DNA of 64,000 nucleotides from assembly GCA_963785725.1 (NCBI GenBank), contig CAWAWS010000007.1, forward strand, positions 384,001-448,000, read 5' to 3'. A program made the position numbers and the translations under genes. The notes under the pieces are model-generated. The model saw only the letters and a program-made list of their open reading frames with translations, searched no databases and was not told the DNA's origin. Origin of the DNA: an uncultured delta proteobacterium (GTDB taxonomy: Bacteria > Myxococcota_A > Polyangia > Palsa-1104). The first letter of the stretch is position 1. Each line of letters begins with the position of its first letter. Below are positions 1,908-51,200 of this stretch, piece by piece.

Positions 1908-2067
1908 CGCAACGCCCGGATGCACGGCTGAATCGAATACCAACGAATGGTTAAACCAATGCGCGCAGTGGGTTGCGCGCGGTCGACAGGGACAGCGAGC
2001 TCCGCGCAACGCCCGGATGTACGGCTGAATCGAATACCAAGAATAGTTAAACCAATGCGCGCAGTGG
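1908..2067. repeat. ~63-bp direct repeat (1908-1971 and 2005-2067), each carrying a box
   Basis: cgcaacgcccggatgYacggctgaatcgaataccaa(c)gaatRgttaaaccaatgcgcgcagtgg occurs twice. Confidence 0.85.
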
Positions 2068-2191
2068 TTTAACCAATGCGCGCAGCGTGAGCCAAGGCGT
2101 TGAGTGGTCAACCAGCGCGCTGAAGTAGTTAGCCAATGCGCTGAGTGGTTAGCCGGTTAGCTAATGCGCTAGGTCGTTAGCCAATGCGTTC

Positions 2192-2290
2192 ATTGGTTAA
2201 ACCAATGCGTTCATTGGTTAAACCAATGCGTTTATTGGTTAAACCAATTCGTTTATTGGTTAAACCAATGCGTTCATTGGTTAAACCATT
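2192..2290. repeat. Tandem array of five 21-bp units, each with TGGTTAAACCA; degenerate units upstream (2041-2190)
   Basis: attggttaaaccaatgcgttY repeated; boxes at 2194, 2215, 2236, 2257, 2278. Confidence 0.95.
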
Positions 2291-2308
2291 GTGCACTGAT
2301 CGGCGGGA

Positions 2309-3247
2309 CTAGAAGACGAAGGCGCCGGAGAAGCTGAGCTGGACTTGGCCGCGTGACCGGTCGGTAATTTGCGTGGGATCGACCTTGCCGCAGTCGGTGG
2401 CGCTGTCGTTGCAAAACGTGTAGGCGAATTCGCCGGTGAACGCGAGGAAGTCGTAGAGCACCCGGAAGCCGGCGAACATGCGCCAGCGAACGATCGTGTC
2501 GGGATCGGGGAATATCGTGTTGGCGTTGATGTCGTTGGAGGTCGCGCCCTGTTTGTAGCTGTCGACGGCGGGCGTCGTGTCGATGACTTCGCCGCGCACG
2601 AAGCTGAGCAGCGCGCCGGCGCCGATGTACGGATCGAGCGTGAACGTGCCGCCGACGCCGAACGACTTCGAGACGGTCGCATCCAGCGCCAGCGTCGTCA
2701 GATCGACCTCGCCCGTGCCGAGCAGGTGCGACACCGACGCGCGCACCGCCAGCGACGGCAGCGCCCAGCCGTGAAAGCCCTCGTGCAGCGCAAACTTCGC
2801 GTAGCCTTGCACCGCGTACAAATTGCTGTCGATGAGCTTCGTCGCGCCGGCGCCGACCTCGAAGCCGGGCAGCGGCCACCACAATCCTTTGCGCGCCATC
2901 ACCGAAATCGTCGACAAATAGCTCGAGGAAACGCTGGATACGCCCTGTTTCCAGTAATCGGCGTTATTCGATATCTGCGTAAATTGCGTTTCGAATGCCA
3001 ATTGAAAGCCGGAATAGCCGAGCGTATCGGCGGGCGCCAGCGGTCCCGGCGCCATCACCAGCGACAGCTCGCTCATGAGGCTCTTGTACATCGACTGCCG
3101 CGTCGGATCGGTCGGATCGTTGAACGTCCCCGGCGTCGACGGTGGGCCGATGATGCGTTCGAGCGTCAAGTCGTTGCGGTCGGCGCGCGCGCGCAAGGGC
3201 AGCGCGGCGACGGCGAATGCGCACAGACCGACGGTGAGCGCGCGCAT
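2309..3247 (-). CDS. Hypothetical exported protein, probable outer-membrane beta-barrel
   Basis: Signal peptide (ARA-D), amphipathic strands, C-terminal Phe (GAFVF). Confidence 0.7.
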   Translation of the reverse strand: MRALTVGLCAFAVAALPLRARADRNDLTLERIIGPPSTPGTFNDPTDPTRQSMYKSLMSELSLVMAPGPLAPADTLGYSGFQLAFETQFTQISNNADYWKQGVSSVSSSYLSTISVMARKGLWWPLPGFEVGAGATKLIDSNLYAVQGYAKFALHEGFHGWALPSLAVRASVSHLLGTGEVDLTTLALDATVSKSFGVGGTFTLDPYIGAGALLSFVRGEVIDTTPAVDSYKQGATSNDINANTIFPDPDTIVRWRMFAGFRVLYDFLAFTGEFAYTFCNDSATDCGKVDPTQITDRSRGQVQLSFSGAFVF

Positions 3248-3312
3248 GTCCGTCGACGAGGCTAACCGCGCGCTCTCTTGAGTGTCAAGAAACGTTGCAG
3301 TAGCGTCGGCGC

Positions 3313-4104
3313 ATGTCCTATAGCGAGATCTTGTATGAAGTGCGCGACTCGGTCGCTCGCATCACGCTCAATCGGCCCGACAAACGCAACCCGCTCGGCC
3401 CGACGACGATCGGCGAGCTTCTGCACGCGCTCGACGGCGCCAAGCGCGACGACGGCGTGCGCGTCATCGTGCTCACCGGCGCCGGCAAGGTGTTTTCGGC
3501 CGGCGGCGACCTGTCATCAATGGGTAGCGGCGGTACGCCCCTGCAAGCGAGCGGGAGTGGTTCAACCAAAGCGGGAACGTTCGTCGATCTGAACTTGGCG
3601 CTCACGCAGGTGGGCAAGCCGACCATCGCGATGGTCAATGGTCACGCGCTGGCGGGCGGGCTCGGGCTCGTCGTTGCGTGCGACGTCGCCATCGTCGCGG
3701 ACGACGCGCAGCTGGGGACGCCGGAGATCAACGTTGGGCTGTGGCCGATGATGATCATGGCGACCATCTTCCGCAACGTGCCGCGCAAGCGTGGGCTCGA
3801 GCTCATCATGACGGGCGACAAGATCTCGGCGGCGCAGGCGGCCGAGCTCGGCTTGGTCACGCGCGCCGTGCCGCGCGATCGGCTGGAGGCCGAGGTCGAT
3901 GCGCTGGCGCAGAAGCTGGCCGCGAAGTCGCCGATCGTGATGAAGCTCGGGCTGGAGGCGTTTTATCGCGTGCAGGACATGGAGTTGGAGCCGGCGCTGC
4001 AGTATCTGCAAGGGCAGCTCATGGCGGTGTTGTCGACGGAGGATGCGCGCGAGGGCTTGATGGCGTTCCTCGAGAAGCGCGCGCCGCAGTGGAAGGGGAA
4101 GTAA
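3313..4104 (+). CDS. Enoyl-CoA hydratase/isomerase family protein
   Basis: ITLNRPDKRN, FSAGGDL, GHALAGGLGLVVACD, PEINVG, AFLEKRAPQWKG. Confidence 0.95.
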   Translation: MSYSEILYEVRDSVARITLNRPDKRNPLGPTTIGELLHALDGAKRDDGVRVIVLTGAGKVFSAGGDLSSMGSGGTPLQASGSGSTKAGTFVDLNLALTQVGKPTIAMVNGHALAGGLGLVVACDVAIVADDAQLGTPEINVGLWPMMIMATIFRNVPRKRGLELIMTGDKISAAQAAELGLVTRAVPRDRLEAEVDALAQKLAAKSPIVMKLGLEAFYRVQDMELEPALQYLQGQLMAVLSTEDAREGLMAFLEKRAPQWKGK

Positions 4105-4124
4105 GCCCAGCGCCCGTTGTGCAA

Positions 4125-4360
4125 TGGTTAAACCAATTGCGGGATTGGTTTAACCATTGAATTTTCCGTTGCGTTGGCAGCAAGCGAGCAGCGGCCGCTG
4201 CGAAATTGTGGTCAGGCGGCGCGGCCGCCGTTGCGAACTTGTGGTTAGGCGGCGCGGAGGCCGCCGCGAACTTGTGGTTAGCCGCGCTGCGGCTGTCGCG
4301 AGTCGTGGTCAGACCGAGCCTTCCTCGATGGTCAAACCATTCGCCTGATTGGTTTAACCA
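4125..4360. repeat. Two 21-bp-spaced box pairs flanking three 33-bp repeats carrying TGGTYA half-sites
   Basis: Boxes at 4125/4146 and 4329/4350; gcgaaMttgtggtYa at 4200, 4233, 4266. Confidence 0.85.
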
Positions 4361-4390
4361 TTCGCGAAGCCGCCGATCGGCGGTGGAGCG

Positions 4391-5509
4391 TCAGGGCTGC
4401 GGATCGGCGCAGCAGCGGAAGCCGGTGGAGTAGTCGTGATACGTCTTGGCGTGGGCCGTCGTCGTGTAGAGGCAGCCGGGACCGTTGATCTTCGCGTCCA
4501 CGAAATAGCCGCCCTTGAAGATGCCGTCGCCGGCGCTGCTCGTGGCGTCGATCCACTCGTGCAGATTGCCGTGTAGATCGTAGATGCCCCAGCTCGACAC
4601 GCAGCGCGGAAAGCTGCCGCCGGGCGCGACGGTGTTCGGCTGGTCGTCGCAGCAGCTGCTGTTCATGTTCGCGGACGTGAATACGTCGCCGGTGCCGAAG
4701 CAGTCGTTGACGGGATTCGTCGCGCGGCCTTCGTTGCAGGCACCGGCCTGGTAGGTGTTGCCGTAGGGATAGGTCCAACCTTGCGGCCCTTGGCAGGCGG
4801 CCAGCCATTCGCTCAGCGTGCACAGTCGCTTGTGTGCGGCGGCGCAGGCGGCGGCGGCCTGCGCTTCGCTGATGTAGCCCTGCGGCTTCACGCCGTCCGC
4901 GACGACGGCGACAATGGTTGAACCTTCGGCGACCGTGTCGACGGGCTGATCGTACGGATGCGCCGTCACCGCGCCGGTCGCGTCGACGACTTCGGTCGCG
5001 GCCTCGAAGCGGTCGACGCAAACGGCGCTGGCGCTCGTGCTCGTGCCACCGCCGCCGCCGTTCGCCGTGCCGCCACCAGTTCCGCCGCCATTTGTGCCGC
5101 CGCCGCTCGAGCTGCCACTCGAACCCGCCCCGCCGCTCGAGCTGCCACTCGAACCCGCGCCGCCGCTCGAGCTGCCGCTCGAACCCGCGCCGCCGCCGCT
5201 CGAGCTGCCACTCGAACCCGCGCCGACGCCGTTCGCGCCGCCGGTTCCGCCGCCATTCGGACCCGCGCCGCCGCCATCGGCGGTCGCGCTGCCGCCGTCG
5301 GCGGCGACGAGGCTGACGCGCGCCATGCCCGCCGGACAGCCGTTGCCTGCGTCGGGCGGTGCGGCGCCGCCGTCGCTCGTCACGCCGCCGTCATGCCCGC
5401 CGCCGCCGTCGCGCGCGCTGCCGCCATCGGTCACACGCGGGCTGTGCGACCGCGAGCAATTGGTTAAACCAATCGCGACCACCCAAGCGCACACGCGAAA
5501 TCGGCGCAC
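4391..5509 (-). CDS. Lipoprotein with Gly/Ser-rich linker and C-terminal FGE-sulfatase (SUMF1-like) domain
   Basis: Lipobox-like GLTNC; CVDRFEA, KRLCTLSEWLAACQG, YDLHGNLHEW, GFRCC. Confidence 0.85.
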   Translation of the reverse strand: MRRFRVCAWVVAIGLTNCSRSHSPRVTDGGSARDGGGGHDGGVTSDGGAAPPDAGNGCPAGMARVSLVAADGGSATADGGGAGPNGGGTGGANGVGAGSSGSSSGGGAGSSGSSSGGAGSSGSSSGGAGSSGSSSGGGTNGGGTGGGTANGGGGGTSTSASAVCVDRFEAATEVVDATGAVTAHPYDQPVDTVAEGSTIVAVVADGVKPQGYISEAQAAAACAAAHKRLCTLSEWLAACQGPQGWTYPYGNTYQAGACNEGRATNPVNDCFGTGDVFTSANMNSSCCDDQPNTVAPGGSFPRCVSSWGIYDLHGNLHEWIDATSSAGDGIFKGGYFVDAKINGPGCLYTTTAHAKTYHDYSTGFRCCADPQP

Positions 5510-5549
5510 GCCTCAGGATAACGGAAGACGACTGTGCTAGGGCTAATGC

Positions 5550-6950
5550 GTGTCATTTCGCGATCGCTACGAGCCCTTCATCGCCTGGCGTTACCTCTAT
5601 CGCCCGCGGCAGAACAAGACGGTGCGCACGCTGACGCTGTGGCTGCTGGCCCTGACGCTGCTCACGCACGTCGCGGCGCTCTTCGCTCACACGCAGCTGC
5701 AGGTGGTCGGCACGGCGCTGGCGCTGCCGTCGCTGCTATCGTTCCTGTTTTGCCTGCTGCTCAACGTCTTCTCGGGATTTACGACGGTGTCGATCATTGG
5801 TGTGACCATTGGCGTGCAGGCGTTGATGGTCGTCTTGGCCGTGACCTCGGGCTTTCAGCAGGCGTTCAAGCAGAAGGTCCTCGGCGTCAACGCGCACGTC
5901 ATCGTCATGAAGTACGGCATGGACTTCGCGGAGTATCGCGACGTCATGAAGAAGGCCGAGCAGCAGCCGCACGTCAAAGCGGCGGCGCCGTTCGTGTTCA
6001 TCGAGGCGATGGTGGCGGCCGACAAATCGTTCGGCGCGATGATCAAAGGAATCGACCCGGTGCGCTCGCTGCAGGTGCTCGACGTCAAGCAGAGCCTGGT
6101 CAGCGGTCGGGTCGAGGAGCTGGCGCGGCGCGCACCGCCGAACGATGGCGGCGATCCGCTGCCGTCGGCGCTGATGGGCAAGGAGCTGGCGAAGAAGCTG
6201 CACGTCAAGCTCGGCGATCGCGTGCGCCTCGTGTCGCCGAAGATCGATCTCGACCCCGGCGCCGGGCAGCTGGCGTCGCGCGAGTTTCGGCTCGCGGGCG
6301 TGTTTTCCACGGGATTCCAAGAGTACGACAGCCGCCTCGTCTACATCAACGTCACCGACGCGCAGGCCTACACCGGCAGCGGCGACGTCGTCACCGGCGT
6401 GGAGCTCAAGCTCGACGACGTCGACAAGGCGCAAGCGGTGGCCAAGACGCTGTACGCGAATTTAGGCGGACCGCCCTATCGCGTCATCGATTGGGAGGAG
6501 CTGAACCACAACTTGTTCACGGCGCTGCGCATGCAGAAGGTGATCATCACCGTCATCTTGACGCTGATCGTGATCGTGGCGGCCTTCAACATCATCGCCG
6601 CGATGACGCTGCTCGTGATTGGTAAGACCAAAGAGATCGCGATCCTGAAGTCGATGGGCATGCGTTCGGCGGGCGTGGCGCGGCTGTTTCAGGCGGCGGG
6701 TTTGGTGATGGGCGGGCTCGGCATCACATGCGGTCTCGGCGTCGGAGCAGCGACGGTGGCGGTGCTGCGGCGCTACAATTATCAGCTCGATCCGCATGTC
6801 TATTTGATCGATCAGCTGCCGGTGAAGGTGAACGCCGACGAGGTCTTGTTGACGGCGGGAATCACGCTCGCGATCTGCTTCGTGGCGACGCTGGTTCCGG
6901 CGCTGCAAGCGGCGCGGTTGGAGCCGGTCGAGGGGCTGCGGTACGAGTAG
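5550..6950 (+). CDS. lolE: Lipoprotein-releasing ABC transporter permease, LolC/E family
   Basis: SIIGVTIGVQALMVVLAVTSGF, LIVIVAAFNII, KEIAILKSMG, PALQAARLEPVEGLRYE. Confidence 0.9.
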   Translation: MSFRDRYEPFIAWRYLYRPRQNKTVRTLTLWLLALTLLTHVAALFAHTQLQVVGTALALPSLLSFLFCLLLNVFSGFTTVSIIGVTIGVQALMVVLAVTSGFQQAFKQKVLGVNAHVIVMKYGMDFAEYRDVMKKAEQQPHVKAAAPFVFIEAMVAADKSFGAMIKGIDPVRSLQVLDVKQSLVSGRVEELARRAPPNDGGDPLPSALMGKELAKKLHVKLGDRVRLVSPKIDLDPGAGQLASREFRLAGVFSTGFQEYDSRLVYINVTDAQAYTGSGDVVTGVELKLDDVDKAQAVAKTLYANLGGPPYRVIDWEELNHNLFTALRMQKVIITVILTLIVIVAAFNIIAAMTLLVIGKTKEIAILKSMGMRSAGVARLFQAAGLVMGGLGITCGLGVGAATVAVLRRYNYQLDPHVYLIDQLPVKVNADEVLLTAGITLAICFVATLVPALQAARLEPVEGLRYE

Positions 6951-6994
6951 GCGCGCGTCGCGCGTGAAGCTCTGCTCGCCGCTTAACGTTGCAA

Positions 6995-7130
6995 TTGGGG
7001 GCGCGCGTCGGCGCTGCGAGCGTGAGCCCGCGATAAGCCATCCACCATCTTGCGCGTTCCACGGATGGCCGGCGCGACCGAGCGGAACGGCGTGGCCGAT
7101 GCTCGCTCGACCGGCCGTCAGCGACAGCCG
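6995..7130 (+). repeat. Dispersed ~150-bp element, copy 1 (most diverged)
   Basis: ttgggggcgcgcgtcggcgctgcgagcgtgagcccgcgataagcc...gatggccggcgcgaccgagcg. Confidence 0.75.
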
Positions 7131-7222
7131 ATGCGGCCACTGGCCGCCCGCGCCATCCCGCCGAGCAGCGCGACCGTACTGCTGCGTGCCCGTGCGTGCA
7201 CGATCACGCGCGCGCGCCGCCG

Positions 7223-7987
7223 CTACTGGGGCAGCTCGAACGTAAACTTATACGACTGAATGACATACGCCGCCGGCTTGCCATCCGTCGTCATCGCCGG
7301 CGTGAACTTGCACCGATGCATCAGCGTGTACTTCGCCTCTTCGTCGAGCCCATGCCCCAGCCCCGACAAGACCTTGATGGCGTGCACGTGCCCCTTCTCG
7401 TCCAGCTCGACGCGCAGCTTCACCTCGCCCTCGATGCCGAGCTGCTGCGCCTCCGCCGGATACTGCGCCATTTTACCGCACGCCTCGCCGTCGATGTCCG
7501 GCATCGTCTTGACGTAAACGTCCGACACCGGCGCGTAGGACGGCTTCGCCGGAATCGCCGACGCCGCCGGCAGCGGCACGACCGGCCCTTTGCCCGACTT
7601 CTTGGGATCGATCATCGTCGTATTGCCGACCGGCACCGCCATCGACGCGTCGCCCTCCGTCGTCGACGACATCGACACGCCGAAAATAGGCTTGGGCGGC
7701 TCTTTCGGCGGCTCCTTCGGCGGCTCGACGTTCGGCGGCGGCGTCACCGTCGGCGGCGGCGCCACGCGCTTGATCGGAATGACCTTCGGCTTCGGCGGCG
7801 GCTCGACCGGCTTCGGCGGCGGCGGCGTCACGCTCTTGACGACCGGCGCCGGCGGCGGCGGCCGCACGTCGATCTCCACCACCTTTGGCCCACGCGGCAA
7901 CGGCGGCGGCACATGCAAGAGCCCGTACGCGATGCCGACGTGCACGACGATCGCACCGGCCAACGCGACGATTTCAGAGCGCTGCAA
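7223..7987 (-). CDS. tonB: Energy transducer TonB
   Basis: N-terminal TM with VHxxI, Pro-rich linker, YPAEAQQLGIEGEVKLRVELD C-terminal domain. Confidence 0.9.
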   Translation of the reverse strand: MQRSEIVALAGAIVVHVGIAYGLLHVPPPLPRGPKVVEIDVRPPPPAPVVKSVTPPPPKPVEPPPKPKVIPIKRVAPPPTVTPPPNVEPPKEPPKEPPKPIFGVSMSSTTEGDASMAVPVGNTTMIDPKKSGKGPVVPLPAASAIPAKPSYAPVSDVYVKTMPDIDGEACGKMAQYPAEAQQLGIEGEVKLRVELDEKGHVHAIKVLSGLGHGLDEEAKYTLMHRCKFTPAMTTDGKPAAYVIQSYKFTFELPQ

Positions 7988-8004
7988 AGTCGACTCCGAG
8001 AACC

Positions 8005-8448
8005 TTACTGCGGGCTCGCGTCCGTATTGAGCGCGAACTTATGCACGCCGAGCGACTTCACGAGGTCGACGATATGGACCACGTCGCCATACGCGATGCC
8101 CTTGTCGGCGGCGATGATCGCTTGCAGATCCTTGTTCTTCGTCAGCATGTCGGGGATCAGCTTCTTGACCTTGTCCTCGTCGGTCTTCTCGCCGTTCGCA
8201 TACAGCGAGTAGCCGCCCGCGGCCTCGCGCTGCAGCGTCAGCGACAGCGTCGACTTCAGCGTCTCGTCGCCCGTCGCCGCCTTCGGCAGCTCGACCTTGA
8301 TCGACGGGTTGTTCACGATCATCGGCGCCGTCACCATGAACACGATGAGGAGCACCAGCGTAATGTCGACGAGCGGCGTGACGTTGATGTCGGCGATGGC
8401 GCCCGGCCCACCTTCGTCGTCCTCGTATTGCGTGCCGCCGCCGGCCAT
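8005..8448 (-). CDS. exbD: Biopolymer transport protein ExbD/TolR
   Basis: INVTPLVDITLVLLIVFMVTAP; IAADKGIAYGDVVHIVD. Confidence 0.95.
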   Translation of the reverse strand: MAGGGTQYEDDEGGPGAIADINVTPLVDITLVLLIVFMVTAPMIVNNPSIKVELPKAATGDETLKSTLSLTLQREAAGGYSLYANGEKTDEDKVKKLIPDMLTKNKDLQAIIAADKGIAYGDVVHIVDLVKSLGVHKFALNTDASPQ

Positions 8449-9131
8449 TACTTCGACTCCGACGGCTTGGCCGCGCCCTTCTTGCCTTCGCTCATGACGG
8501 CGCCTTCGTCGTTGCCTTTGAGCTGCGCGAGGACGATGTGGGCGAGCGCGTCGGAGTTGGCGAGCGACTGGCGCACGCGGCGGTTGAAGAAGTTGAACCC
8601 GACGACGGCCGGGATGGCGACGAGCAGGCCGACGGCCGTGGCGACGAGCGCCGACGAGATGCCGGCCATGACGACGCCGACGCCGCCCGCCTGATTCTTG
8701 GCCAGGTCATCGAACGACCGAATGATGCCGAGGACGGTGCCGAAGAGGCCGATGAAGGGCGCGTTGTTGCCGAGCGTGCCCAAGAACACGAGGTTGCGAT
8801 CGAGCCGCATGCGCTCGCGCGCCTTCTGCCCGACCATGGCTTCGGCGACGGAGTCGGGGCCGCGCTCGGCCTCGTCGAGGCCGGCGGCGACGATCAGCAT
8901 CTCCGACGCGTCCGAGCCCTTCACGCGAGCGCGCGCGTCGGCCAGGTTGCCCTTCGACAGAAAGCGACGCAGGTCGGTCTTGAGCGACTCGACGTCGATG
9001 GTGTGCGTGGCGAAGAACCAGGCGCGCTCGATCATGATGGCGACGCTGAGGATCGACAGCGCCACCAGCAGCCACAGGACCCATTCGGCGCCGAGCAGCG
9101 TGAGGGCGAGGAACTTTTCCGTAATATGCAT
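8448..9131 (-). CDS. exbB: MotA/TolQ/ExbB proton channel protein
   Basis: FLGTLGNNAPFIGLFGTVLGII; ISSALVATAVGLLVAIPA. Confidence 0.95.
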   Translation of the reverse strand: MHITEKFLALTLLGAEWVLWLLVALSILSVAIMIERAWFFATHTIDVESLKTDLRRFLSKGNLADARARVKGSDASEMLIVAAGLDEAERGPDSVAEAMVGQKARERMRLDRNLVFLGTLGNNAPFIGLFGTVLGIIRSFDDLAKNQAGGVGVVMAGISSALVATAVGLLVAIPAVVGFNFFNRRVRQSLANSDALAHIVLAQLKGNDEGAVMSEGKKGAAKPSESK

Positions 9132-9273
9132 GAGGCTCCGGTCTATATGCGAGCGCGGTTGCGCGTGGCAAGTCTAAGCGCGAACCGTTCGCCGTTCAAT
9201 TGGTGTGACGCACGACGGCCAACCCGCGTTGCACCGCGCGTAGATGTCGAAATCACTGACGAGAATTATAGGG

Positions 9274-10335
9274 TTACGAGGCGGCGGCGGGATGTGTCGG
9301 CGTGGCGCTGGGAGGTGCCACCTTTGTGACTTCTGCCAACAGCACGGTCGCGTAAGCGCCCGGCGGCAGCATGAACTCGAGCACGATCGCGTCCGCCGAG
9401 TCGCCGGCGCGCACGGCCGCCGACGCCACCGGCACCGTCAGCGGGCGACGCGTGCCTTCGGCGAGCCGGCCGAGCACGACGAAGGTCGCGGCGTCGATCT
9501 GCTCCTCGGCCAAGATCTTCTGCTCGCGCGCGCCGGCCGGCGTTTCCGGCGGCGGCGCCATCATCTTGTGGCCGAACATCGGGCCGGTCACGACGAGCGC
9601 GCGCGCCGACAGCCGCGCCTGCGCGTCCGCCAGCGACGTCGCGTCGACGGTAAAGAGGCCGCCGGTGTCGCTCTTCTTGAGCACGTCGCCTTCCAGAGCC
9701 GTCGTCATCAGCGCGTCGTCGATGCGCGCGTCCAAGAAGCGGTTGAACAGCTCCGACTGATAGGCGCTCACGAGCATGCGCTTCTCCGTCGGTGGCACGC
9801 GGCGCGTCGAGGTCAGGAGCTGCTTGCCGCGCACGGCATTGTCGCCGCGCGCGCCGAACCGCTGCGGGCCGAAGTAGTTGGGCAGCCCATCGGTGACGAG
9901 CTTGGCGACGATCGCCTGCGCGCGGGCGATCGCGTCGGGGCCGACGCCGCGCACCGTGATCGTGAAGTGGTTGCCGGCGAGGTGACCGGTGCGCAGCTTG
10001 TTGCCGTGACGCGCGGCGGCCAGCACGCGCACGCCTTCCACGGCCGTCGCCAGCGCGCGCTCGGGCTCGAGGTTGGGCAGCGAGATCCACTGTCGCGTCA
10101 GCGCTTGGCGATCTTTTTGCCCGGCGACGCCGGCTTCGTTGGGCTTGATGGCCAAGGCGCGACACATTCGCGCCACCGCTTCGGCCGTCGTCAGGCCGCG
10201 CTTTTCGATGTGCACGAACGTATGGCTGCCTTCGCCCGACGGCGAATAGGCGGGCAGCTCGTCGACGATGAAGTCCTCGGGCGTAGTCTTGGCGGCGCCG
10301 CCCGTGCCGGGCAGGTCGCGCGTGGTCAGGCGCAT
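9274..10335 (-). CDS. truD: tRNA pseudouridine(13) synthase TruD
   Basis: PEDFIVDE, AGQKDRQALTRQWIS, GHLAGNHF, PNYFGPQRFG, FMLPPGAYATVLL. Confidence 0.95.
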   Translation of the reverse strand: MRLTTRDLPGTGGAAKTTPEDFIVDELPAYSPSGEGSHTFVHIEKRGLTTAEAVARMCRALAIKPNEAGVAGQKDRQALTRQWISLPNLEPERALATAVEGVRVLAAARHGNKLRTGHLAGNHFTITVRGVGPDAIARAQAIVAKLVTDGLPNYFGPQRFGARGDNAVRGKQLLTSTRRVPPTEKRMLVSAYQSELFNRFLDARIDDALMTTALEGDVLKKSDTGGLFTVDATSLADAQARLSARALVVTGPMFGHKMMAPPPETPAGAREQKILAEEQIDAATFVVLGRLAEGTRRPLTVPVASAAVRAGDSADAIVLEFMLPPGAYATVLLAEVTKVAPPSATPTHPAAAS

Positions 10336-10342
10336 TCGGCGC

Positions 10343-10350
10343 AGTATACT
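10343..10350. promoter_or_regulatory. Symmetric -10 element (AGTATACT), putative bidirectional leaderless promoter
   Basis: TATACT on both strands, 6 nt from ATG 10357 (+) and 7 nt from ATG 10335 (-). Confidence 0.65.
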
Positions 10351-10356
10351 CAAGCG

Positions 10357-12745: not shown

Positions 12746-12765
12746 ACGCCTAGTTGCTGCTGCAA

Positions 12766-12906: not shown

Positions 12907-12925
12907 CCCAACGCGACCGTCCCGA

Positions 12926-42656: not shown

Positions 42657-43646
42657 TCAGCCGGCGAGTAGCGCGGCCGCCGTCGCTGCGCCGCCGTCGT
42701 CGCCGGCACATGCGAGCGCCAGGGTGCCTTGGGCGGCGTGACTGAAGAATTCAGCGACGGCGATGAGCGGCGCCGCGCCCAATGTATTCCCGTCGCTGAC
42801 GGCGCTTCGTGCAGCGCTGGCGGCGGATGAGCCGGCATCCCATTCGCGCCCTTGCACGCGGGCGCGACGAGCGGCGGCGCCATCAGCGGGCGCAGCCAGG
42901 ACGCGCCCGAACGCGCCCGCCGGCAGATCGGCCGCCGCCAGCGTTCGCGCGATCGCGTCAGCGACGGCCGCCGCGCGCGCGCCGGCGTGAAACGCGGCCG
43001 CCGCCGCCAGCAGCCGCCCGCGTGGCGTCGCGCCCCGTCGCGCAGCATCGCCGGCTCGCTCGAGCAGCAGCGCGGCGCTGGCGTCGACCAGCGCCGCGTC
43101 GGCGTAAAGGGACGGCCCGTCCCCCGCCAAAATTCGCGTCAACAACGGCGTCGCCACCTCGGCCGCGCACACCAACACGCGGTCGGCGCGCCCACGCTCG
43201 ATCAGCGCCACTCCTTCGGCGAACGCGTCGAGCCCACTGGTCAAACCATTGCACCACGCCGTCGCCGGACCGCGTACGCCGTAGTGAATCGAGACCTCAC
43301 CGACGGGAGACGAGGGCAACGTGTACGCGAACAGGCGTGGGCTGGCGCCGAGCTGGCCGTCGCGAACCAAGCCGCGATAGTAGTCTTCGTTGGTCGCGTG
43401 GCAGCCGAAGGCGCTACCGAATACGATGGCCGTGCGCTCGCCGTCCCATTCGGGCGCAGTCGGCGCCAGCGCGCCGTCGAGCAGCGCGCCATCGCAGGCC
43501 ACGAGCGTCAGCGCGCACAGGCGATCCATGCGCGCCAGCCGTGCCTCTTTGCCGGCCCAGCGCGCCGGCGCGAGCGCGGCGCCCGGCATGACCGCAACCG
43601 CATACGCGCCCGTCACCACCACTTCGGTTCGCCGTTCTCGCGCCAT
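42657..43646 (-). CDS. Beta-ketoacyl synthase-like protein lacking the catalytic Cys (chain-length-factor-like)
   Basis: VVVTG, RMDR, SPRLFAYTLPS, VSIHYGVRGP; GLTSG where an active KS has ACASG. Confidence 0.8.
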   Translation of the reverse strand: MARERRTEVVVTGAYAVAVMPGAALAPARWAGKEARLARMDRLCALTLVACDGALLDGALAPTAPEWDGERTAIVFGSAFGCHATNEDYYRGLVRDGQLGASPRLFAYTLPSSPVGEVSIHYGVRGPATAWCNGLTSGLDAFAEGVALIERGRADRVLVCAAEVATPLLTRILAGDGPSLYADAALVDASAALLLERAGDAARRGATPRGRLLAAAAAFHAGARAAAVADAIARTLAAADLPAGAFGRVLAAPADGAAARRARVQGREWDAGSSAASAARSAVSDGNTLGAAPLIAVAEFFSHAAQGTLALACAGDDGGAATAAALLAG

Positions 43647-43670
43647 CGCCAAGGCTGTAGAGTCTACGCA

Positions 43671-45725
43671 ATGCGGCAATCGGCGTCGATTTCGAAATGG
43701 TTAAACCAATCCTTGGCGCTGTTGCTGCTCGTCGCCGCCGGCTGCAGCAGCAAGCCAGTCGGCCCGCAGGCGGTCATGCAAGCGACGACGCCGCTCGACC
43801 TGCGCCTCTTGCCCTGGCCGTCGGATGCGCTGCTCGGCGACAACGGTAAGCTGCAGGTGGCGACGCCGTTCCCCTTCGATTCGCTCGTCGAGGACAATCT
43901 GACGCAGCTGGCGGCGTCGTTGTCGGAAGCGGACGGGTTTTCGTCGACGCGTTCGATCTTCTTCCCCGTCGACGCGGATGTCGTGCTCGACGCGGGCGCC
44001 GTCGCGACCGTGGCCGACCTCGACGACGCGACGCAGACGTGGAGCTTTCCGCTCTTTTATCGCGCGCCCTACAAGCAGCTCGTGGCCATGTCGCCGCTCG
44101 GGACGTCGCTGAAAGAGCACCACAACTACGGCTGCTGGATCACGAGCGGCGTTCACGATGCCGCCGGTCACGCGCTGCGGCCGTCGCCGACGATGCACGA
44201 TGCCATCGCTGGAAAAGGGGCGTTTGGCGGCAAGGCGTCCTATCAGAAGTTGGCGCAGCGTCTCGCTTCGTTAAAGGTCAAACCATTGGCGGCGACGGCG
44301 TTCACGACGCAGACGCTGACCGGCTGGGTGCCCAAGGTGCTCGACGATTTGACGGCCATGCCGCCGGTGGCGCACTTCACGCGGCTCTTCGCCTCGTCGG
44401 ACGACCTGCAGGATCTGTTCGGCGGCCCGGTGACGACGACGCTGCCGGGCCGTCCGGCGTCGGGCGGCGTGCTGCACGATCAGATCGGCTTCGTCCTCGA
44501 AGGCACCTACGACTCGCCGCACTATCTCGCGCCGACGCCGGATGTGCTCGGGCTGTTCGACGCCGCGCAATCGGTGCAGTCGGTCAACTCCATCCCGTTC
44601 ATATTGGTCCTACCAATTCGCGGCGACTATGCGAACACGCCGGTGGCGATTTTTCAGCACGGCATCGACAGCGACCGTTCGGCGGTGCTGTCGGTCGCCA
44701 ACGACTACGCGGCGCGCGGCTACGCCGTCCTCGGCATCGACGAGCTGTGGCATGGCTCGCGACTACCGGGCAACGTCGACAAGGTGTTCAACCTCTCCGG
44801 CGCGCCCGGCAGCGACGGCATCGGCGACCCGAGCAGCGGCGGCGCGGTGTCGTGGTTCTTCGACTTCAACGGCAACTCCAGCGCCGGCATCCTGTCGCTC
44901 GACGTGCGCTGCATTCGCGACAACTTCCGCCAAGCGACCGTCGATCTCATGCAGGAAGTGCGACTCGCGCGCAGCGGTGATTTCTCGTCGCTGGCGGCGG
45001 CCGACCCGCGCTTGGCGACGCTGACCATCGACGGGGCCGATCTCGTCTATACGTCGGAGTCGTTCGGCTCGATCTTGGGCGCGATCGTCGTCGCCGTCGA
45101 TCCGATGCTCGACTCGGCCGTGCTCGACGTCGGAGGCAGCGGCATGCTGGCCGATCTCGTGCCCAATTCGCCGGAGTTCGGCCCGCGACTGGCGCCGCTC
45201 GTCTCCAACGCGTTCGATATCGACGCCGATCTCGACGATCCCGACACGCTGCCCGTGCGCGCGCAAATGTCGTTCAACCTCTTGCAGCAGGTGCTCGATC
45301 CGGCCGACGGGCTCGCGCTTTCGTCGGGGTCGACCGCGAGCAAGAGCCTATTTTTCCTGCACGACTTCGCCGACGAGACGGTGCCGAATCAGGCGGAGGA
45401 GGCCTTGGCGCGCGCGTTCGGCGCCACGCAGGTCGTGCTCGCGCAGCAGTCTCATGCGCTCACGTACGTGACGTTGCCGACGACAGCGGCGCCGTATGCC
45501 GCTTCGCCGCTGCACGCCGTCGTCGAGTTGGCCGGCGCCGGCCACGGCATGTTCACGACGCAGGAAGGCACGCACAACTATCAGTTTCCGTTTCCGCCGT
45601 TCACGATGCTGCCGGCGGTGCAGCCGTTCGACGAGCCGACCGCGTTGGCGCACGCGCTGGCGCTCGACTTCATCGACAGCGTTCGCGCCGGCGCGCCCAG
45701 CATCACCGATCCGACCGCAAATTAA
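43671..45725 (+). CDS. Lipoprotein, VolA/Pla-1-like lipase (alpha/beta hydrolase) family
   Basis: Lipobox AAGC; PWPSD, ADGFS, FQHGI, IDELWHG, RDNFRQ, SESFG elbow variant, DETVPN. Confidence 0.7.
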   Translation: MRQSASISKWLNQSLALLLLVAAGCSSKPVGPQAVMQATTPLDLRLLPWPSDALLGDNGKLQVATPFPFDSLVEDNLTQLAASLSEADGFSSTRSIFFPVDADVVLDAGAVATVADLDDATQTWSFPLFYRAPYKQLVAMSPLGTSLKEHHNYGCWITSGVHDAAGHALRPSPTMHDAIAGKGAFGGKASYQKLAQRLASLKVKPLAATAFTTQTLTGWVPKVLDDLTAMPPVAHFTRLFASSDDLQDLFGGPVTTTLPGRPASGGVLHDQIGFVLEGTYDSPHYLAPTPDVLGLFDAAQSVQSVNSIPFILVLPIRGDYANTPVAIFQHGIDSDRSAVLSVANDYAARGYAVLGIDELWHGSRLPGNVDKVFNLSGAPGSDGIGDPSSGGAVSWFFDFNGNSSAGILSLDVRCIRDNFRQATVDLMQEVRLARSGDFSSLAAADPRLATLTIDGADLVYTSESFGSILGAIVVAVDPMLDSAVLDVGGSGMLADLVPNSPEFGPRLAPLVSNAFDIDADLDDPDTLPVRAQMSFNLLQQVLDPADGLALSSGSTASKSLFFLHDFADETVPNQAEEALARAFGATQVVLAQQSHALTYVTLPTTAAPYAASPLHAVVELAGAGHGMFTTQEGTHNYQFPFPPFTMLPAVQPFDEPTALAHALALDFIDSVRAGAPSITDPTAN

Positions 45726-45762
45726 CGAGGCGCATAATGGTTAAACCAATCCAAGAAATGGT

Positions 45763-47004
45763 TTAACCATTGGCGCGAGTGAGGACGACGGCGGCGTTCG
45801 TGCCGCCGAAGCCGGACGACGTCGACAGCGCGACGCGCACGTCGGCGGCGCGCGGCGCGCCGTGCACGACGTCGAGCGCGATCTGCGGATCGATCTCACG
45901 CAGCCCAGCGGTGGGCGCGATCTGGCCGGCTTCGAGCGTGCGCACGCAGACGATCGCCTCCAACGCCGCCGCCGCGCCGAGCGTGTGGCCGAGCGCGCCC
46001 TTGACGGAATTGACCGGGATGGCCCCGGCGCGTTCGCCGAAGACGTGACGTAACGCGTGGCCTTCCATCAGATCGTTGAAGACGGTGGCGGTGCCGTGCG
46101 CGCTGACGAAGCCGACGGCGCCCGCGTCCTGGCCGGCGTCGACGAGCGCGGCCTGCATGGCGCGGGCGGCGCCGCGGCCTTCGCGGTCGGGCCCGGTCAT
46201 GTGCACGGCGTCGGCGGCGACGCCGCTGCCGTCGACGAAGGCGCGGATGCGGGCGCCGCGATCCCGCGCGTGCGGCTCGGCTTCGATGACGAGAAAGGCC
46301 GCCGCTTCGCCGAGGTTGAGACCGCGGCGGCTGCCATCGAACGGGCGACAGAGCTCGGCGTCGAGCGCTTTCAGGCAGGCGAAGCCTTGAATGACGAAGT
46401 CGTGCAGCGCGTCGGCGCCGCCGGCGAGCACGACGTCACAGCGGCCGCTGCGGATGAGCGCCAGGGCGGCGTCGATCGCGACGTTACCCGACGCGCAGGC
46501 CACCGAGGGCACGACGAGCGGGCCGCGCGCGTCGACGGCCGCGGCGACGGCTTGCGCCGGACCGGCGTAGCCCCAGCCTTGCGGCGCGCGCAGTGGTGCG
46601 GTTGATGGTTCAACCATTGCGTCGATTGGTTCAACCACTGCGCCGATTGGTTTAACCATTGACGCGCCCGCTTCGACGTCGGCGCGAACGAGCGGCAGCC
46701 ACGACGCGATGCCGCCCAGCGTCGTGCCGCAGGCGACGGCGAGCCGCGGGCCGCGCGGGACGTTGCCGGCGTCGGCGAGCGCCTCTTCCGCGGCCCAGCG
46801 CGCCAACGTCGCGGCGCGCGACGGCGCCGTCAGCGGTAAAGCTTCGACGAGCGCCACGGGGCCGACGCGCAGGCCGACGGCGCTCAGCTGCGGCTGCTCG
46901 CGCATGGCGCGCTCGCCGTCGAGCAGTGCCGTCCACAGCCGCTCGACGCCGCGGCCGAAGCCCGTTACCGCGCCCATTCCCGTGACGACCGCGCGAATGC
47001 TCAC
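45763..47004 (-). CDS. Beta-ketoacyl-ACP synthase (FabF-like) with box-derived in-frame insertion
   Basis: ACASG, CRPFD, GLNLGE, AHGTATVFND, KGALGHTLGAA, SSGFGGTN. Confidence 0.93.
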   Translation of the reverse strand: MSIRAVVTGMGAVTGFGRGVERLWTALLDGERAMREQPQLSAVGLRVGPVALVEALPLTAPSRAATLARWAAEEALADAGNVPRGPRLAVACGTTLGGIASWLPLVRADVEAGASMVKPIGAVVEPIDAMVEPSTAPLRAPQGWGYAGPAQAVAAAVDARGPLVVPSVACASGNVAIDAALALIRSGRCDVVLAGGADALHDFVIQGFACLKALDAELCRPFDGSRRGLNLGEAAAFLVIEAEPHARDRGARIRAFVDGSGVAADAVHMTGPDREGRGAARAMQAALVDAGQDAGAVGFVSAHGTATVFNDLMEGHALRHVFGERAGAIPVNSVKGALGHTLGAAAALEAIVCVRTLEAGQIAPTAGLREIDPQIALDVVHGAPRAADVRVALSTSSGFGGTNAAVVLTRANG

Positions 47005-47124
47005 GGACGCTCGCTGGCCGCCGAATGTTCCGGCTCGAGCGCGCTCACGGCCGGCTGCGGGTAGGGCGCCGTCACCGCGAGCCGTTTACCGCGCGCGCCG
47101 TCGGCGGCCCGCCATCGCAGACTG

Positions 47125-47384
47125 AGGGCCGCGCAGCCGCCGTCGCTGGCGCTGCCGGGCACTGCTGCGGCGGATTCCAGAAGTCGAGCTCTGCCGATAG
47201 TCCACCGCAAGCTCAGGGCCGCGCAGCCGCCGTCGCTGGCGTCGCCCGGCAGTGCCGGGGCTGCCGCTGCGGATTCCGGAAGTCGAGCTCCGCCGACGGC
47301 CAAACGCAGCAGGCTCACGGCGCCGTCGCCGTCGCTGGCGTCGCCGGCACTGCCCGCACCGGCTGCGGCGGATTCCAGAAGTCG
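47125..47384. repeat. Three ~90-100-bp degenerate copies that include the acyltransferase 3' end
   Basis: gccgtcgctggcg...ggattccRgaagtcga occurs three times. Confidence 0.8.
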
Positions 47385-48271
47385 AAGAAGTTGAACCATT
47401 GCTCCGGATACTGCCGCACGTACCGTTCGTACACGGCCACGATACGCGCCGTCGCCTCGCGCACGTCGGCGTCGCGATCGCTCGTATGCGCCACTTCGAT
47501 CGGCGGCTCGACGTGAAACGTACAGTGCGTGCGCGTCTGGTCGGCGATGATGAACGTCGGCAAGAGCGGCGAGCCCGTCGCGCGCGCCAACGTCGCCGGC
47601 CCCAGCGGAAACGGCGCGTCGTGCCCGCAAAACGGCAGCCGCACATGCGGCCCGCCGGTGAAGCGATCCATCTGCATCCCGACGAGCTCGCCGCGACGCA
47701 GCACGCGCGCCAGATCGAGCGTCGCGAACGGCGAGCGCGTCGTGTACACGATGCTGAATTTCTCGCGAAACTGCCGCTCCCACTCGCCGGTGCCTTGGTT
47801 CGGCTCCTCGGCCATCGCCATCGTCAGCGGCGGATAACTCTTACGCTTCATCAAGATCGGCGCGATCTGCCAAAAGCCGAGATGCCCCGTGACGACGACG
47901 GCGCCGCGCCCCTCCTGCTGCAGCTTCGTGATGTGCTCTTGCCCGAGCGTCACCGCGTCGACGGGAACCGCTTGCCCGGCGTGCAGCGCGTACATGTTGG
48001 CGATCGACTGCGCGTAGTTCACGAAGAGGCGAAAGCTGCGCGCCTTCGTCTCCAGCGGATTGGTAGGACCAATGACGCGCTCGAGATTGGCCTCGATTAC
48101 GCGCCGCGCGCGCGGCACCAACACATAGAAAATACCGGCCCAGAACGGCATCGTCGCCCGCTGCAGCGGATGCGAAATGTTGCGAATACCGGCCATCATC
48201 ACCCGGCGGTAGAACGGACCTTCGAAGCGATGGCGAAACGCTTGAGCTGCTGACTGTTTCCGACTGCGCAT
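47315..48271 (-). CDS. Lysophospholipid/lipid A (LpxL-like) acyltransferase
   Basis: VVTGHLGFWQ, VGMQMDR, FPLGPATLARATGSPL, VRQYPEQWFNFFDFW. Confidence 0.9.
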   Translation of the reverse strand: MRSRKQSAAQAFRHRFEGPFYRRVMMAGIRNISHPLQRATMPFWAGIFYVLVPRARRVIEANLERVIGPTNPLETKARSFRLFVNYAQSIANMYALHAGQAVPVDAVTLGQEHITKLQQEGRGAVVVTGHLGFWQIAPILMKRKSYPPLTMAMAEEPNQGTGEWERQFREKFSIVYTTRSPFATLDLARVLRRGELVGMQMDRFTGGPHVRLPFCGHDAPFPLGPATLARATGSPLLPTFIIADQTRTHCTFHVEPPIEVAHTSDRDADVREATARIVAVYERYVRQYPEQWFNFFDFWNPPQPVRAVPATPATATAP

Positions 48272-48289
48272 ACGGACGCGCAGTATCCC

Positions 48290-51200
48290 CTAAAGTCGTG
48301 CGGGCGTCACGTCGCGCAAGAGCAGCACGTGATCGAGCTCGATCGCCGATCCTTCGCGCTTGAGCTCGATGCGAATTGGTTTAACCATTTCTGAAATTGG
48401 TTTAACCATTCTCGCTTCCTGGTAACGCGGGCCCAACGTCAGCGGCGGCAGCGCCACGCCGTCGACGATGACCGTCAGCTGCGCGTTGTCGCCGAGGGCC
48501 CGCGCGCGCACGAGGATGACGTCGGCGCCCGCCGGCGCGACCGCGCGCAGCGACGCCGTGGGCGCGTCGAGCGTACAGCTGCTCGCGCCCAGCCACTGCT
48601 CGAGCGCGGCTTCGACGGCCGGGACGCGCCCGTGGCGACAGACGAGATCGATGCCACCGACGGTCGACGGCGGCGGCGCGGCTGGCAGCGGCGCGTCGGT
48701 GACGCGCGAGGCCTGCATGATCGGCCGCGGCGACGGGCGCGCATGCACGGGCGGACGAAAGCTGTTCGGCGCCCACGTCGTCGTCGCGACCGCGCCGAGG
48801 CGAACGAGCGCTTCGCTGGCGCGCGGCAGCGGCGGCTCGGCGGCGGCGGCCGCCGCCAGCGCGTCGACGGCACGCGCGTCGCCGGCGAGACCGAGCGCCC
48901 AGGCCAGATCGACGCGCGCGTCGTCGTGATCTTCGACGGCAAAACGATCGAGCAGAGCCCCGGCGGCGCGACGATCGCCGACTCGTCCGGCGATGCGACC
49001 GACGGAGACGTAAGCGGCGCCGCGTACGCGCGGGTCGGCGGCGACGCTCCACAAGGCGGCGACATCGCCGGCGCCGCCGACGAAGCCGAGGTAGTGCGCG
49101 GCTTCGCGCTGCAGCGCCGCGGCGGCGCTGTCGCCTTCGGCGAACGGGCGACGACAGATCGCGGCCAAGCGCGGCGCCGCGGCGTCGTCGCGCAGACGGC
49201 CGAGCATGAGGGCGGCGCGATCGCCGTAGGCATCGTCGTCGACGAGCGCGCGCAACGCGGCGCGGGCGCGCGCGTCGCTGAGCTGGCCGAGCGCGAGCGC
49301 GGCTTCGGCGCGCACGGCGGGATCGCGGTCGGCGAGCGCGGCTTGTAACGCGGCCGCGGCGGCGAAGGCTTCGCGCTCGCCGAGCTCGCGGGCGGCTTGG
49401 GCGCGCGTGGCCGCCGGCTGCGTCGGGTCGCCGAGGCGCGTCGCCAGCAGCGACGGCGGCGATTGGTTCAACCATTGGCCGAGCGCCGCGCGCAGCTCGC
49501 CGCCGACGTCGGCGTGCACATCGTAGGCATTCCGCATTTCGCGCGGATCGGACTGCAGATCGTAGAGCTCGTCGACGTCGCGGCGCAGATCGTGAATCAG
49601 CTTCCACGGCCAACGCAGCAGCATGCGACGCGTGTGCACGGCCGCGACGACGTCGCGCGGCGCCGGGTCGAGCGGCGGCAGCGGGCGGCCGTCGCCGGCG
49701 CTGGGTGGCAAGCCGGCGAGCGCGGCCAGCGTCGGGGCGACGTCGACGAGCGACACCGGCGTGGCGATCGTCACAGCCGGCAAGAGCGCGCGGCCGACGA
49801 CGGTGACGACGAGCGGCACGCGCAGCTGCTCGTCGTAGACCGAAGAGCCGTGATACGCGCCGCCATGCTCGCCGAACTCCTCGCCGTGATCGCCGGTGAT
49901 GACGAGCAAGGTCGGGCGCGCCAAATTGGTTAAACCATTAATGAGGCGAGCGAGCGCGCCATCGACGGCGGCGACTTCGGCGTCATAACGAGCCAGTGGC
50001 GGCGCATCGGCGGGCAGGCCATGCAGCTCGTAAGGCTCGTGCGGATCGAAGTAGTGGACCCACAAGAGCGAGCGCGGCTCACCATCGGCGACGAGCTGCT
50101 GCACGCGCGTCAACACGGCGTCGGTCAGCTCCTCCGCGGGCAGCGTGCGCGTGTCGACCCATTCGAAGCCGAAATGATCGTTGGCGTACGGTAGAAGTGG
50201 CCCGCCGCCGTCGAAGAAGAGGCCGGCGGGGAAGAATGCGGCCGTCAGCCAGCCTTGGGCGCGCGCGATCTGCGCCAGCGTCGGTGGGCGCGCGTCGAGG
50301 TGCGACGGGTGGTGGGCGGTGAGCAGCGCCGTGATCGACGCGGCTGTCGAGGGTGCCGTGGCGTAGGCGCGGCTGAAGGCGAGGCTGTGCGCGGTGGCTG
50401 CGGCGACGAGCGGCATGTGCTCCGGCCGCAGGCGATCGGCGCGCAACGCGTCGACGGTAACGATGACGACGTGCGCGTCGCCGAGCGGCGCGGCGGCCTG
50501 CGCCCAGATGTCGGCGAGATCGGCGTCGGCGCGGTTCAGGGGCGCAAGATTGGTTAAACCATTCGCCGCGGCGGCGGTTGCGCCGGTCGTCACGCCCGGC
50601 GCCGACGGCGCGCCGTTCTTGGCGGCCGCAGCCGTCGTCGCCGCCGGGCGAAGAGCCGTCGCAGGCTGACTCAGCGAGCGCGCGACGAATGGTTTAACCA
50701 TTGTCACGGCGTCGAGGACGAGCGCGGTAGCCGGCGCTTGCGCGTTGGCCACGAAGCGCGTGTTGGCGCTGACGTCGACGAGAGTGCGACCGGCGAGCAA
50801 GAGCAGCACGCCGGCGAAAGACGCGACGGCGGACGATCGCCAGCGACGCCAGCTGCGCCAGTCGGCGGGCAGGCGCGGCTTGGCGGCGCCGAGCGCGCAC
50901 GCGAGCGCGACGAAACCGATGGCGAGCAGCGTCGCGCGCAGCGACGGGTAGAGGCGGCGGGGCAAGAGCGCTTCGAAGGCGAGCGTCGCCGCGCCGGCGG
51001 CGGCGAGCAGGACGCGGCCGAGTGGCGCGCGGCCGACGTGGAGCCGCGCGATCGACGGCAGCAGCCACAGCGCGGCGGAGATGGTGGCGGCGAGCAGCGC
51101 CGGCGCCGCGCGGCCGAGTCGCGCTTGCGCCAGATGGGTGGACGACAGCGCGATGCCGAGTGGAATGCCGGCGACGACGGCAGCGGCGGCGCGCGCGATC

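Follow-up and report, generated by a model that had tools for sequence, protein, structure and literature searches.

Paired palindromic boxes confined to a few chromosomal domains in a family of Polyangia, and a FadR-fold GntR regulator as their likely binder

Introduction

In this study, we analyzed 64,000 nucleotides from an uncultured delta proteobacterium of the class Polyangia (G000:C7:384001-448000, that is, positions 384,001 to 448,000 of contig CAWAWS010000007.1 in assembly GCA_963785725.1; hereafter the window), along which a short palindromic box recurs between and inside genes, often in pairs whose starts lie exactly 21 bp apart. The locus raises the question of what binds these boxes and why they stand so densely over the genes found there. 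An earlier note, made from the letters alone, had read the constant distance and the unrelated spacers as selection for cooperative binding of dimers on one face of the DNA, or for filament nucleation, rather than as copying of a mobile repeat. Our analyses point to a regulator of the GntR family, encoded among the boxes, as their likely binder, and suggest that operator fields may have spread from a few true operators over whole domains. The assembly (G000; 8.9 Mb, 68% GC, 88% complete) was compared with its relatives, which carry numbers in the same series; genes were called with a codon model of our own, and some starts in the box-bearing domains were called too short.

Results

The box is a 15-bp palindrome, AWTGGTTNAACCAWT, in the symmetrised logo of 159 sites, with almost no information past position 7. 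All 109 genome copies of the exact core TGGTTWAACCA, together with 159 of 175 looser matches, lie inside four domains of 12-38 kb, namely domain 1 (C7:352-390 kb), domain 2 (C7:419-436 kb), domain 3 (C33:40-64.5 kb) and the C39 domain (C39:304-316 kb). These span 91.5 kb together, or 1% of the DNA, and carry one to two boxes per kilobase. An assembly artefact was rejected, since the boxes are syntenic in seven relatives. The domain proteins that could be named, among 82 scanned, comprise a tryptophan/aryl-CoA operon, an ACP-fabG-KAS cluster, a protein kinase, RluD, a lytic transglycosylase and PhaR, besides nadC, birA, thyA, folA, peptidases, a glycosyltransferase and YggX; thyA, folA, nadC, birA and yggX are covered by domains and single copy in the assembly.

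The distribution of distances between neighboring boxes in the four domains of G000 was far from flat. Among 155 such gaps, 36 measured exactly 21 bp, against 0.30 expected and a maximum of 5 in 5000 random placements; within the 52 gaps of at most 100 bp, the same 36 stood against no more than three occurrences of any other value. The pairs reported by the earlier note were all recovered with their spacers, at 2044/2065 (first box beginning TAGTT), 2194-2278 (five boxes), 4125/4146, 4329/4350, 37933/37954, 41908/41929, 42238/42259 (second box beginning TGGTTTC), 45738/45759, 46606/46627/46648 and 48377/48398, and the boxes at 804-889 are indeed 31, 32 and 22 bp apart. The histogram that it had set beforehand as a test showed the peak at 21 bp but not the one at 31-32 bp. 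A three-turn spacing class was rejected, because 31 and 32 bp occurred once each and the 31-bp gap is a tandem duplication; as soft evidence, related-strain contigs skip one 31-bp unit in three of four sequencing runs (likeness 88). Two further descriptions were kept in part. The spacers do vary, but the box has 15 bp rather than 11, so that four of the ten spacer letters belong to the box and six are free, and the inverted 32-bp unit is a tendency only, as the central bases place 16 of the 23 solitary pairs in inverted and 7 in direct orientation.

Fourteen of the 36 gaps of 21 bp fall in four tandem arrays and 22 in solitary pairs (13 and 23 by weight matrix). Period-21 tandem repeats are common outside the domains of G000 as well (222 of 1228), so the arrays alone prove little, and the argument is carried by the solitary pairs, whose 6-nt cores are unrelated and whose flanks are not common to different pairs. 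Elements that form hairpins, such as repetitive extragenic palindromes (REP) and terminators, have a covarying stem, a U-tract or common flanks. In the boxes, the W positions were complementary in 53 of 122 sites of G000 and 66 of 143 of the relatives, the median fold was -2 kcal/mol, and a T-tract followed none of 159 sites. With neither covariation between the two W positions nor a T-tract behind them, no hairpin is selected, and a REP-like or terminator identity was rejected.

The likely binder is encoded in domain 1. One of four GntR genes in G000 lies there, 15.4-16.2 kb before the window on the minus strand (C7:367773-368570; L003:1773-2570), and encodes 265 amino acids. Translation begins within the second box of a 21-bp pair, whose letters there read MVKP. 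The protein matched PF00392, the N-terminal GntR winged helix (E 1.5e-21, 76.2 bits against a cut-off of 27), and PF07729, the all-helical FCD/FadR C-terminal domain (26.7 bits against 24.3); its structure model had a predicted local distance difference test score (pLDDT) of 91, and the best Foldseek matches were to E. coli FadR, with template modeling (TM) scores of 0.65-0.69. It fell below the cut-off of every NCBIfam equivalog shown (TIGR02812, 42.2 against 249.2 bits; NF003444, 44.4 against 189 bits), and it would at most work like FadR without being an E. coli-type FadR equivalog. The box itself fits the FadR-subfamily palindrome TKGT-N3-ACMA (PMC4494728).

Box and regulator also go together among relatives. 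The gntR start lies inside a pair in G000-G004, G010 and G012, and likewise in 11 of 11 metagenome loci (two of which repeat G004 and G012), which were found by an N-terminal pattern with no upstream box required; a single box-like site stands just 5' of the gene in six of six distant orthologues from two other families. Among the matches listed in a search of genome contigs for related loci were only distant GntRs, with 0-2 matrix hits per locus. Strict boxes in 401 genomes of the class numbered 123 (G000), 47, 35, 28, 27, 22, 7 and 6 in eight genomes, all of one family, and at most five in the other 393, which include the unpublished G331 and G363, on which no claim rests alone. With six candidates scored per genome, seven of these eight box-rich genomes (at least six strict boxes) yielded a close orthologue, and homologues of the regulator carry the source labels Polyangia or Myxococcales.

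A four-copy model of the regulator gave a homodimer score of 0.61, the best of three controls reaching 0.04, with at least 79% of contacts agreeing between runs and a pLDDT of at least 79. Of the solved pairs, 20 of 30 reached the mark for a homodimer, as did 1 of 23 single chains; these numbers hold only roughly, and the score may pass through likeness to solved FadR dimers. The model thus supports a homodimer; its confident contacts lie only between two copies and give no information on dimer-dimer contact. Close orthologues have a basic C-terminal tail, and the N-terminal arm carries a conserved PPSARR. Judging from the box at its own start and its co-occurrence with boxes, the domain 1 FadR-fold GntR protein is very probably the binder of the boxes. 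Two other candidates were considered unlikely: PhaR, because the phaR region of G010 is box-free while the gntR start of that genome has a pair, and a widespread near-origin GntR paralogue, because most genomes without boxes also have matches of similar score and the 2.5 kb around its gene are box-free. This paralogue is found at C19:148331-149032, about 25 kb from parS, and most genomes of the order have similar-scoring matches.

Relatives differ in the distance within pairs, as counted in loci fetched around known sites. All 22 gaps below 25 bp were 21 bp in G001-G004, G007 and G010, whereas 18 of 21 were 20 bp in G012, with two of 19 and one of 21. Four orthologous pairs are 21 bp in G000 and 20 bp in G012 (regulator start, ligase junction, creatininase end and window position 45738). 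G012 is sister to G010 both in a kinase tree (support 96/99; 15 rows, G002 dropped as too short and G007 without a match) and in a tree of six concatenated genes (support 87; six genomes, G001 and G002 not in), so 20 bp is derived; only one independent 20-bp lineage was seen among the 11 metagenome loci. Because G012 uses 20 bp, the distance follows lineage rather than a fixed two turns. The cooperative binding proposed in the earlier note is upheld as regards a fixed distance with free spacer, a source other than mobile-repeat copying and a candidate binder, but not as a universal two-turn rule. The concerted one-base change at many separate pairs would call for a trans-acting geometry, for example neighboring dimers that touch, and we consider it probable that each 20- or 21-bp pair holds two cooperating dimers side by side. 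The N-terminal arm of the G012 regulator is one residue longer.

Boxes are placed in and between genes. Nine domain segments from four relatives (G002 excluded because of frameshifts) had boxes in 23 of 72 tandem, 16 of 30 divergent and 10 of 27 convergent gaps (convergent versus divergent, p 0.29); 37 of 138 genes had an internal box, and the 45 coding sites were uniform along genes (p 0.40). Across seven relatives, 75 of 164 box loci lie inside called genes. The placement is not that of a conventional promoter-operator regulon, which has sites only at promoters of related operons.

Within genes, boxes align with the orthologous sequence without any indel and bring rare codons and changed residues, for example EPALPRPF to EPKLVKPF. 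The letters of relatives at G000 sites were bimodal in 144 ungapped alignments, gapped ones being left out: 56 had 0-2 mismatches, 18 had 3-6 and 70 had 7-11. Some intermediate sites differ at third codon positions only, as would be expected from point mutation under selection. Box sharing is patchy across the tree; the box at C7:380300 is kept in six of six relatives, and several coding boxes are kept across genera. These patterns suggest that coding boxes are selected and are not noise. Decay of silenced genes was rejected, as domain proteins are as conserved as others in comparisons of 36 versus 29, 28 versus 20 and 36 versus 146 domain and other genes (p 0.97, 0.08 and 0.12).

Domains also appear and disappear. 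Domains 1-3 have matching box-bearing regions in G002, G003 and G004, and domains 1 and 2 also in G012. Box-free relatives have the same order of genes near the domain 1 kinase, so the boxes are a later layer on old core DNA. For domain 2, a single site was seen in G001 and in G004, at the fabG divergon (short fetched loci), and one in about 29 kb fetched from G003; in G012 the domain reaches about 20 kb further than in G000. Only G000 showed the C39 domain, which has 27 boxes within 12 kb; 10 fetched orthologous loci of five relatives gave no hit, and the domain appears to be new in G000. In G012, two pairs lie near genes whose G000 matches (C15, C4) are box-free, and G010, with about eight sites, probably lost most boxes, as it is sister to G012. 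Tandem repeats make up 7.5% of the domains and 1.1% of the DNA outside in G000; the excess is weaker in G002, G004 and G012 and absent in G003. Collinear gaps are longer in domains in three non-independent comparisons. A single strong box lies outside the domains, at C20:273119 (L223), about 40 bp upstream of an aconitase gene; it may be an ordinary operator or a new seed.

The domains have no common position, since domain 1 of G002 lies about 1 Mb from parS and the C39 domain about 0.4 Mb from the origin (20 sampled synteny anchors). In G002 (7.9 Mb), parS falls at C2:660 kb, and domains 1 and 3 at 1.62-1.65 Mb and 1.71-1.72 Mb, respectively; in G000, canonical parS (C19:123.7 kb), dnaA (C19:114 kb) and parB (on C6) are all off the domain contigs. 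An identity as parS or origin marker was rejected on these grounds. Dif-like motifs identified no dif in G000, where the skew signal of replichores is weak. Compared with G002, where its matches lie at 0.24 and 1.04 Mb, the block that contains the new C39 domain (C39:289-326 kb) has been rearranged about the origin.

Discussion

We lean towards a seed-and-spread explanation, in which a few operators seed self-extending fields that would keep the regulator over whole domains of 12-38 kb. The ancestor would have been a regulator with one auto-operator, and the seeds would be a few true operators, namely its own divergon, the tryptophan/aryl-CoA operon and the fabG divergon. A FadR-like dimer would bind the box, a 20-21 bp pair would take two of them, and further boxes about 1 kb apart, in and between genes, would serve as auxiliary sites that raise local occupancy. 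Because bound dimers would help each other at 20-21 bp and over about 1 kb, a new box would pay only near old ones, and box fields could grow, shrink and sometimes arise anew whatever genes lie there. Whole domains would be coated and probably bridged by the regulator until an acyl-CoA-type effector lifted the coat, much as acyl-CoA is known to release E. coli FadR; acyl-CoA complexes also feature in PDB titles among the structural matches. Protein binding to the DNA may further account, as a side effect, for the surplus of tandem duplications in the domains. We tentatively put forward the broader claim, which we hold with some doubt, that a metabolite-switchable factor organizes sequence-encoded, self-spreading and duplication-prone chromatin-like domains, whose boxes nucleate, spread across whatever genes adjoin them at a cost in amino-acid changes, and are respaced together (21 to 20 bp) when the protein changes. 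If true, it would be a bacterial counterpart of heterochromatin that spreads and is reversed by a ligand, or a repressor hub encoded in the genome itself.

Several observations weigh against the seed-and-spread explanation. First, the domain limits were drawn by us after the sites had been seen. Second, intergenic DNA is about tenfold richer in boxes (75 gap counts, some double-counted, in 18 kb versus 45 in 114 kb of coding DNA), and divergent gaps are the class most often occupied, as operators would be. Third, residue identity was lower under boxes (137 of 325) than in flanks (486 of 650), but the comparison took only relatives with at least six mismatches, which lowers identity by construction. 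Fourth, helical phasing of gaps of 22-300 bp peaked at a period of 10.7 bp with p 0.02 for all 48 gaps, and loop-type phasing fell to p 0.20 once gaps with duplicated flanks were dropped (n=38). In addition, box-bearing G007 yielded no orthologue of the regulator in a genome that is 51% complete, G011 has a fragment of the orthologue and 0 strict boxes, and the G010 orthologue is without the PPSARR arm, yet both its pairs are 21 bp, so the arm is not a simple ruler. Seed-and-spread also leaves unexplained what the cell would gain from coating thyA or rluD.

Among the alternatives, we consider first that boxes act as roadblocks like the stoperators of phages, where each box or pair would stop RNA polymerase from either direction and damp all transcripts of a domain until the effector arrives, with no bridging. 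This is unlikely, although gene junctions are crowded in five relatives (21 of 147 sites overlap a called start and 15 of 147 a called stop), four pairs line one G007 operon at the upstream gap and three junctions, boxes were spaced more evenly than by chance in 5 of the 10 domains examined, and the L5 repressor is described as working so (PMC9283540). The genes covered are unrelated, several are single-copy housekeeping genes, and they are no less conserved than others; roadblocks would also give no account of new boxes arising only near old ones, or of pairs in convergent gaps behind both stop codons. Mycobacteriophage L5 and other cluster A phages resemble the present system in having one repressor with more than 20 sites, many in short intergenic spaces (PMC9283540), but stoperators are asymmetric 13-mers bound by monomers and oriented with transcription in phages, whereas here paired palindromes lie in core chromosomal genes. 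Thus the many junction sites are shared, and neither an asymmetric oriented site nor a prophage context was found; none of the viral contigs searched carried a box pair.

It is quite improbable that the boxes form an ordinary FadR-type regulon of acyl-CoA and lipid genes whose surplus sites are inert copies made by local duplication. An aryl-CoA ligase, acyl-CoA dehydrogenases, hydratases, ACP, fabG and KAS are indeed found in three domains, and distant orthologues have one operator, but no acyl-CoA gene is among the named genes of the C39 domain. The arrays, with 14 of the 36 gaps of 21 bp, and the tandem-repeat excess (7.5% against 1.1%) would agree with inert duplicates; coding boxes are, however, substitutions in register with orthologues, and solitary pairs are without common flanks. 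Inert intragenic sites of PhoB have been described as not conserved (PMC9934606), unlike several boxes that are kept across genera, such as C7:380300 in all six relatives.

Molecular drive, whereby the bound protein or a bias in DNA transfer would fix multi-box DNA with no benefit to the cell, seems less probable still. It would suit the 76-fold enrichment of box-encoded peptides in domain proteins (31 in 20,651 residues versus 46 in 2.33 million) and the runaway count in G000 (123 against 22-35 in congeners). The nearest known case is the DNA uptake sequences of Haemophilus and Neisseria (PMC2817400), a motif that likewise builds up in coding DNA and enriches the peptides it spells; those are genome-wide and tied to competence, whereas the boxes occupy 1% of the genome, with 0 exact copies outside 91.5 kb, and are tied to a transcription factor. 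In addition, the proposed binder is a FadR-fold regulator that has an operator of its own, and no transfer machinery was linked.

MatP sites (matS), for their part, are spread over the terminus region of the chromosome. A landmark for segregation or division of the parS, matS or RefZ-motif kind, with a GntR protein co-opted as anchor, is the least probable of these explanations, for although the palindromes are clustered and independent of promoters, with RefZ motifs (10.1101/459685) as a precedent, and close orthologues have the basic tail, canonical parS, dnaA and parB lie on other contigs, and the domains share no position and come and go between congeners.

For the seed-and-spread explanation, precedents exist part by part. 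FadR-subfamily GntR proteins such as E. coli FadR, PdhR and LldR share the winged helix-turn-helix, the helical effector domain and the FadR fold, as well as the TKGT-N3-ACMA palindrome with A/T flanks and the auto-operator, and double sites at constant distance are known in their divergons (PMC4494728). That survey gives 2396 sites for 634 factors, about four each, whereas in the genus studied here strict boxes number 22-123 in each genome and keep to domains, with about half of the loci inside genes and unrelated genes covered. The auxiliary operators of lac, one of them inside lacZ, similarly raise the local concentration of repressor by looping (PMC3592455), but there are two of them, against dozens here that are labile between lineages and rewrite proteins. 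GalR, proposed to restructure the chromosome by long-range contacts (PMC5110547), is the nearest functional precedent, the bridging oligomer being only putative here. Dimers of the GntR protein NanR of E. coli cooperate side by side through an N-terminal extension and depending on spacing (PMC8012715), which resembles the conserved PPSARR arm; NanR binds three direct GGTATA repeats in single operators, whereas here full palindromes stand at 20-21 bp and the arm-less orthologue keeps 21.

The protein family, the motif and cooperative double sites are thus of known kinds. What appears new is the use made of a familiar protein and motif, with fields of operators that take no account of what the genes do, alter the proteins encoded there, and come and go among congeners; the literature consulted, mostly non-subscription papers, contained no example of such dense and labile fields that keep to domains and change protein sequences. 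If real, the system would show how a local repressor can turn into an organizer of chromosome domains, with living stages at one site (other families), 6-47 and 123 boxes. For dimer-dimer geometry, the lineages with 21 and with 20 bp would serve as a swap experiment made by nature; work on the protein and its short operators, in vitro and in E. coli, would not require the host in culture.

Features of the Window

The right end of domain 1 occupies positions 1..5810 of the window. The phaR-like regulator gene (PHB_acc_N) lies at 157..714 on the minus strand, with the four boxes at 31, 32 and 22 bp in the divergent gap upstream of it (802..901). A convergent gap follows that holds a single box, a 21-bp pair (2042-2077) and an array of five boxes with a period of 21 bp (2192-2290), together spanning 1946..2290. 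The box at 3556..3570, within an enoyl-CoA hydratase gene (3313-4104, plus strand), has no counterpart at the same position in six relatives. Two solitary 21-bp pairs (4123-4158 and 4327-4362) share a convergent gap at 4123..4362, where G003 and G004 have a single box, and the final boxes of the domain stand upstream of and within a lolE-like gene (5459..5810). A 31-kb box-free stretch (5820..37100; best matrix score 12.3) then carries exbB, truD, a bamD-like gene, mnmG, dnaG and others.

Domain 2 lies whole in the window (37117..51705), with 31 matrix hits over birA, a lolA-like gene, ACP, fabG, a deacetylase, a hydratase, two KAS genes, a phospholipase, an acyltransferase and a sulfatase-HEAT gene. 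A solitary 21-bp pair stands past the 3' end of birA (37931..37966), and the box in the fabG/deacetylase divergent gap (40300..40314), which is present in G002 too and is the only site observed in the fabG loci fetched from G001 and G004, is a candidate seed operator. Two pairs (41906-41941 and 42236-42271) lie in a convergent gap at 41906..42271. The pair at 45736..45771, across the convergent ends of the phospholipase and KAS genes, is 21 bp in G002 and 20 bp in G012. Within a KAS gene (45763-47004, minus strand), three boxes at 21 bp stand in frame (46604..46660), where G002 has a pair, and a 21-bp pair in the 3' part of the sulfatase-HEAT gene (48375..48410) reads in frame as MVKPISEMVKPI and is also a pair in G002.

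Further observations concern the same regions. The box in 38144-38178 is the center of a 35-bp palindrome, perfect except for the central base, and partly palindromic flanks also occur at C7:374851. Box-free tandem repeats are found in gaps and gene ends of domain 2 at 38912-39240, 42460-42564, 47164-47385 and 51318-51422. The birA gene (36343-37883) is split over two frames near 37440, with a 63-bp tandem repeat preceding; since this is the only birA found, the split is likely a sequencing error. The ACP, fabG, LolA-like, deacetylase, hydratase, two KAS, phospholipase and acyltransferase genes (39273-47004 and 47315-48271) form a type II fatty-acid/polyketide-like cluster.

Outside the window, the arm-less orthologue of the regulator is at L129:47-772 in the complete genome G010, with about eight boxes, and is a single case. 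A 293-amino-acid protein beside the domain 1 kinase (L003:7276-8154) had no match in Pfam or NCBIfam profile scans; it is conserved, also in box-free relatives. The C39 domain encodes a radical SAM protein of the CUAEP/CCAEP-tail kind (L009:10254-11027), as judged by a partial match to NF040546 below its cut-off.

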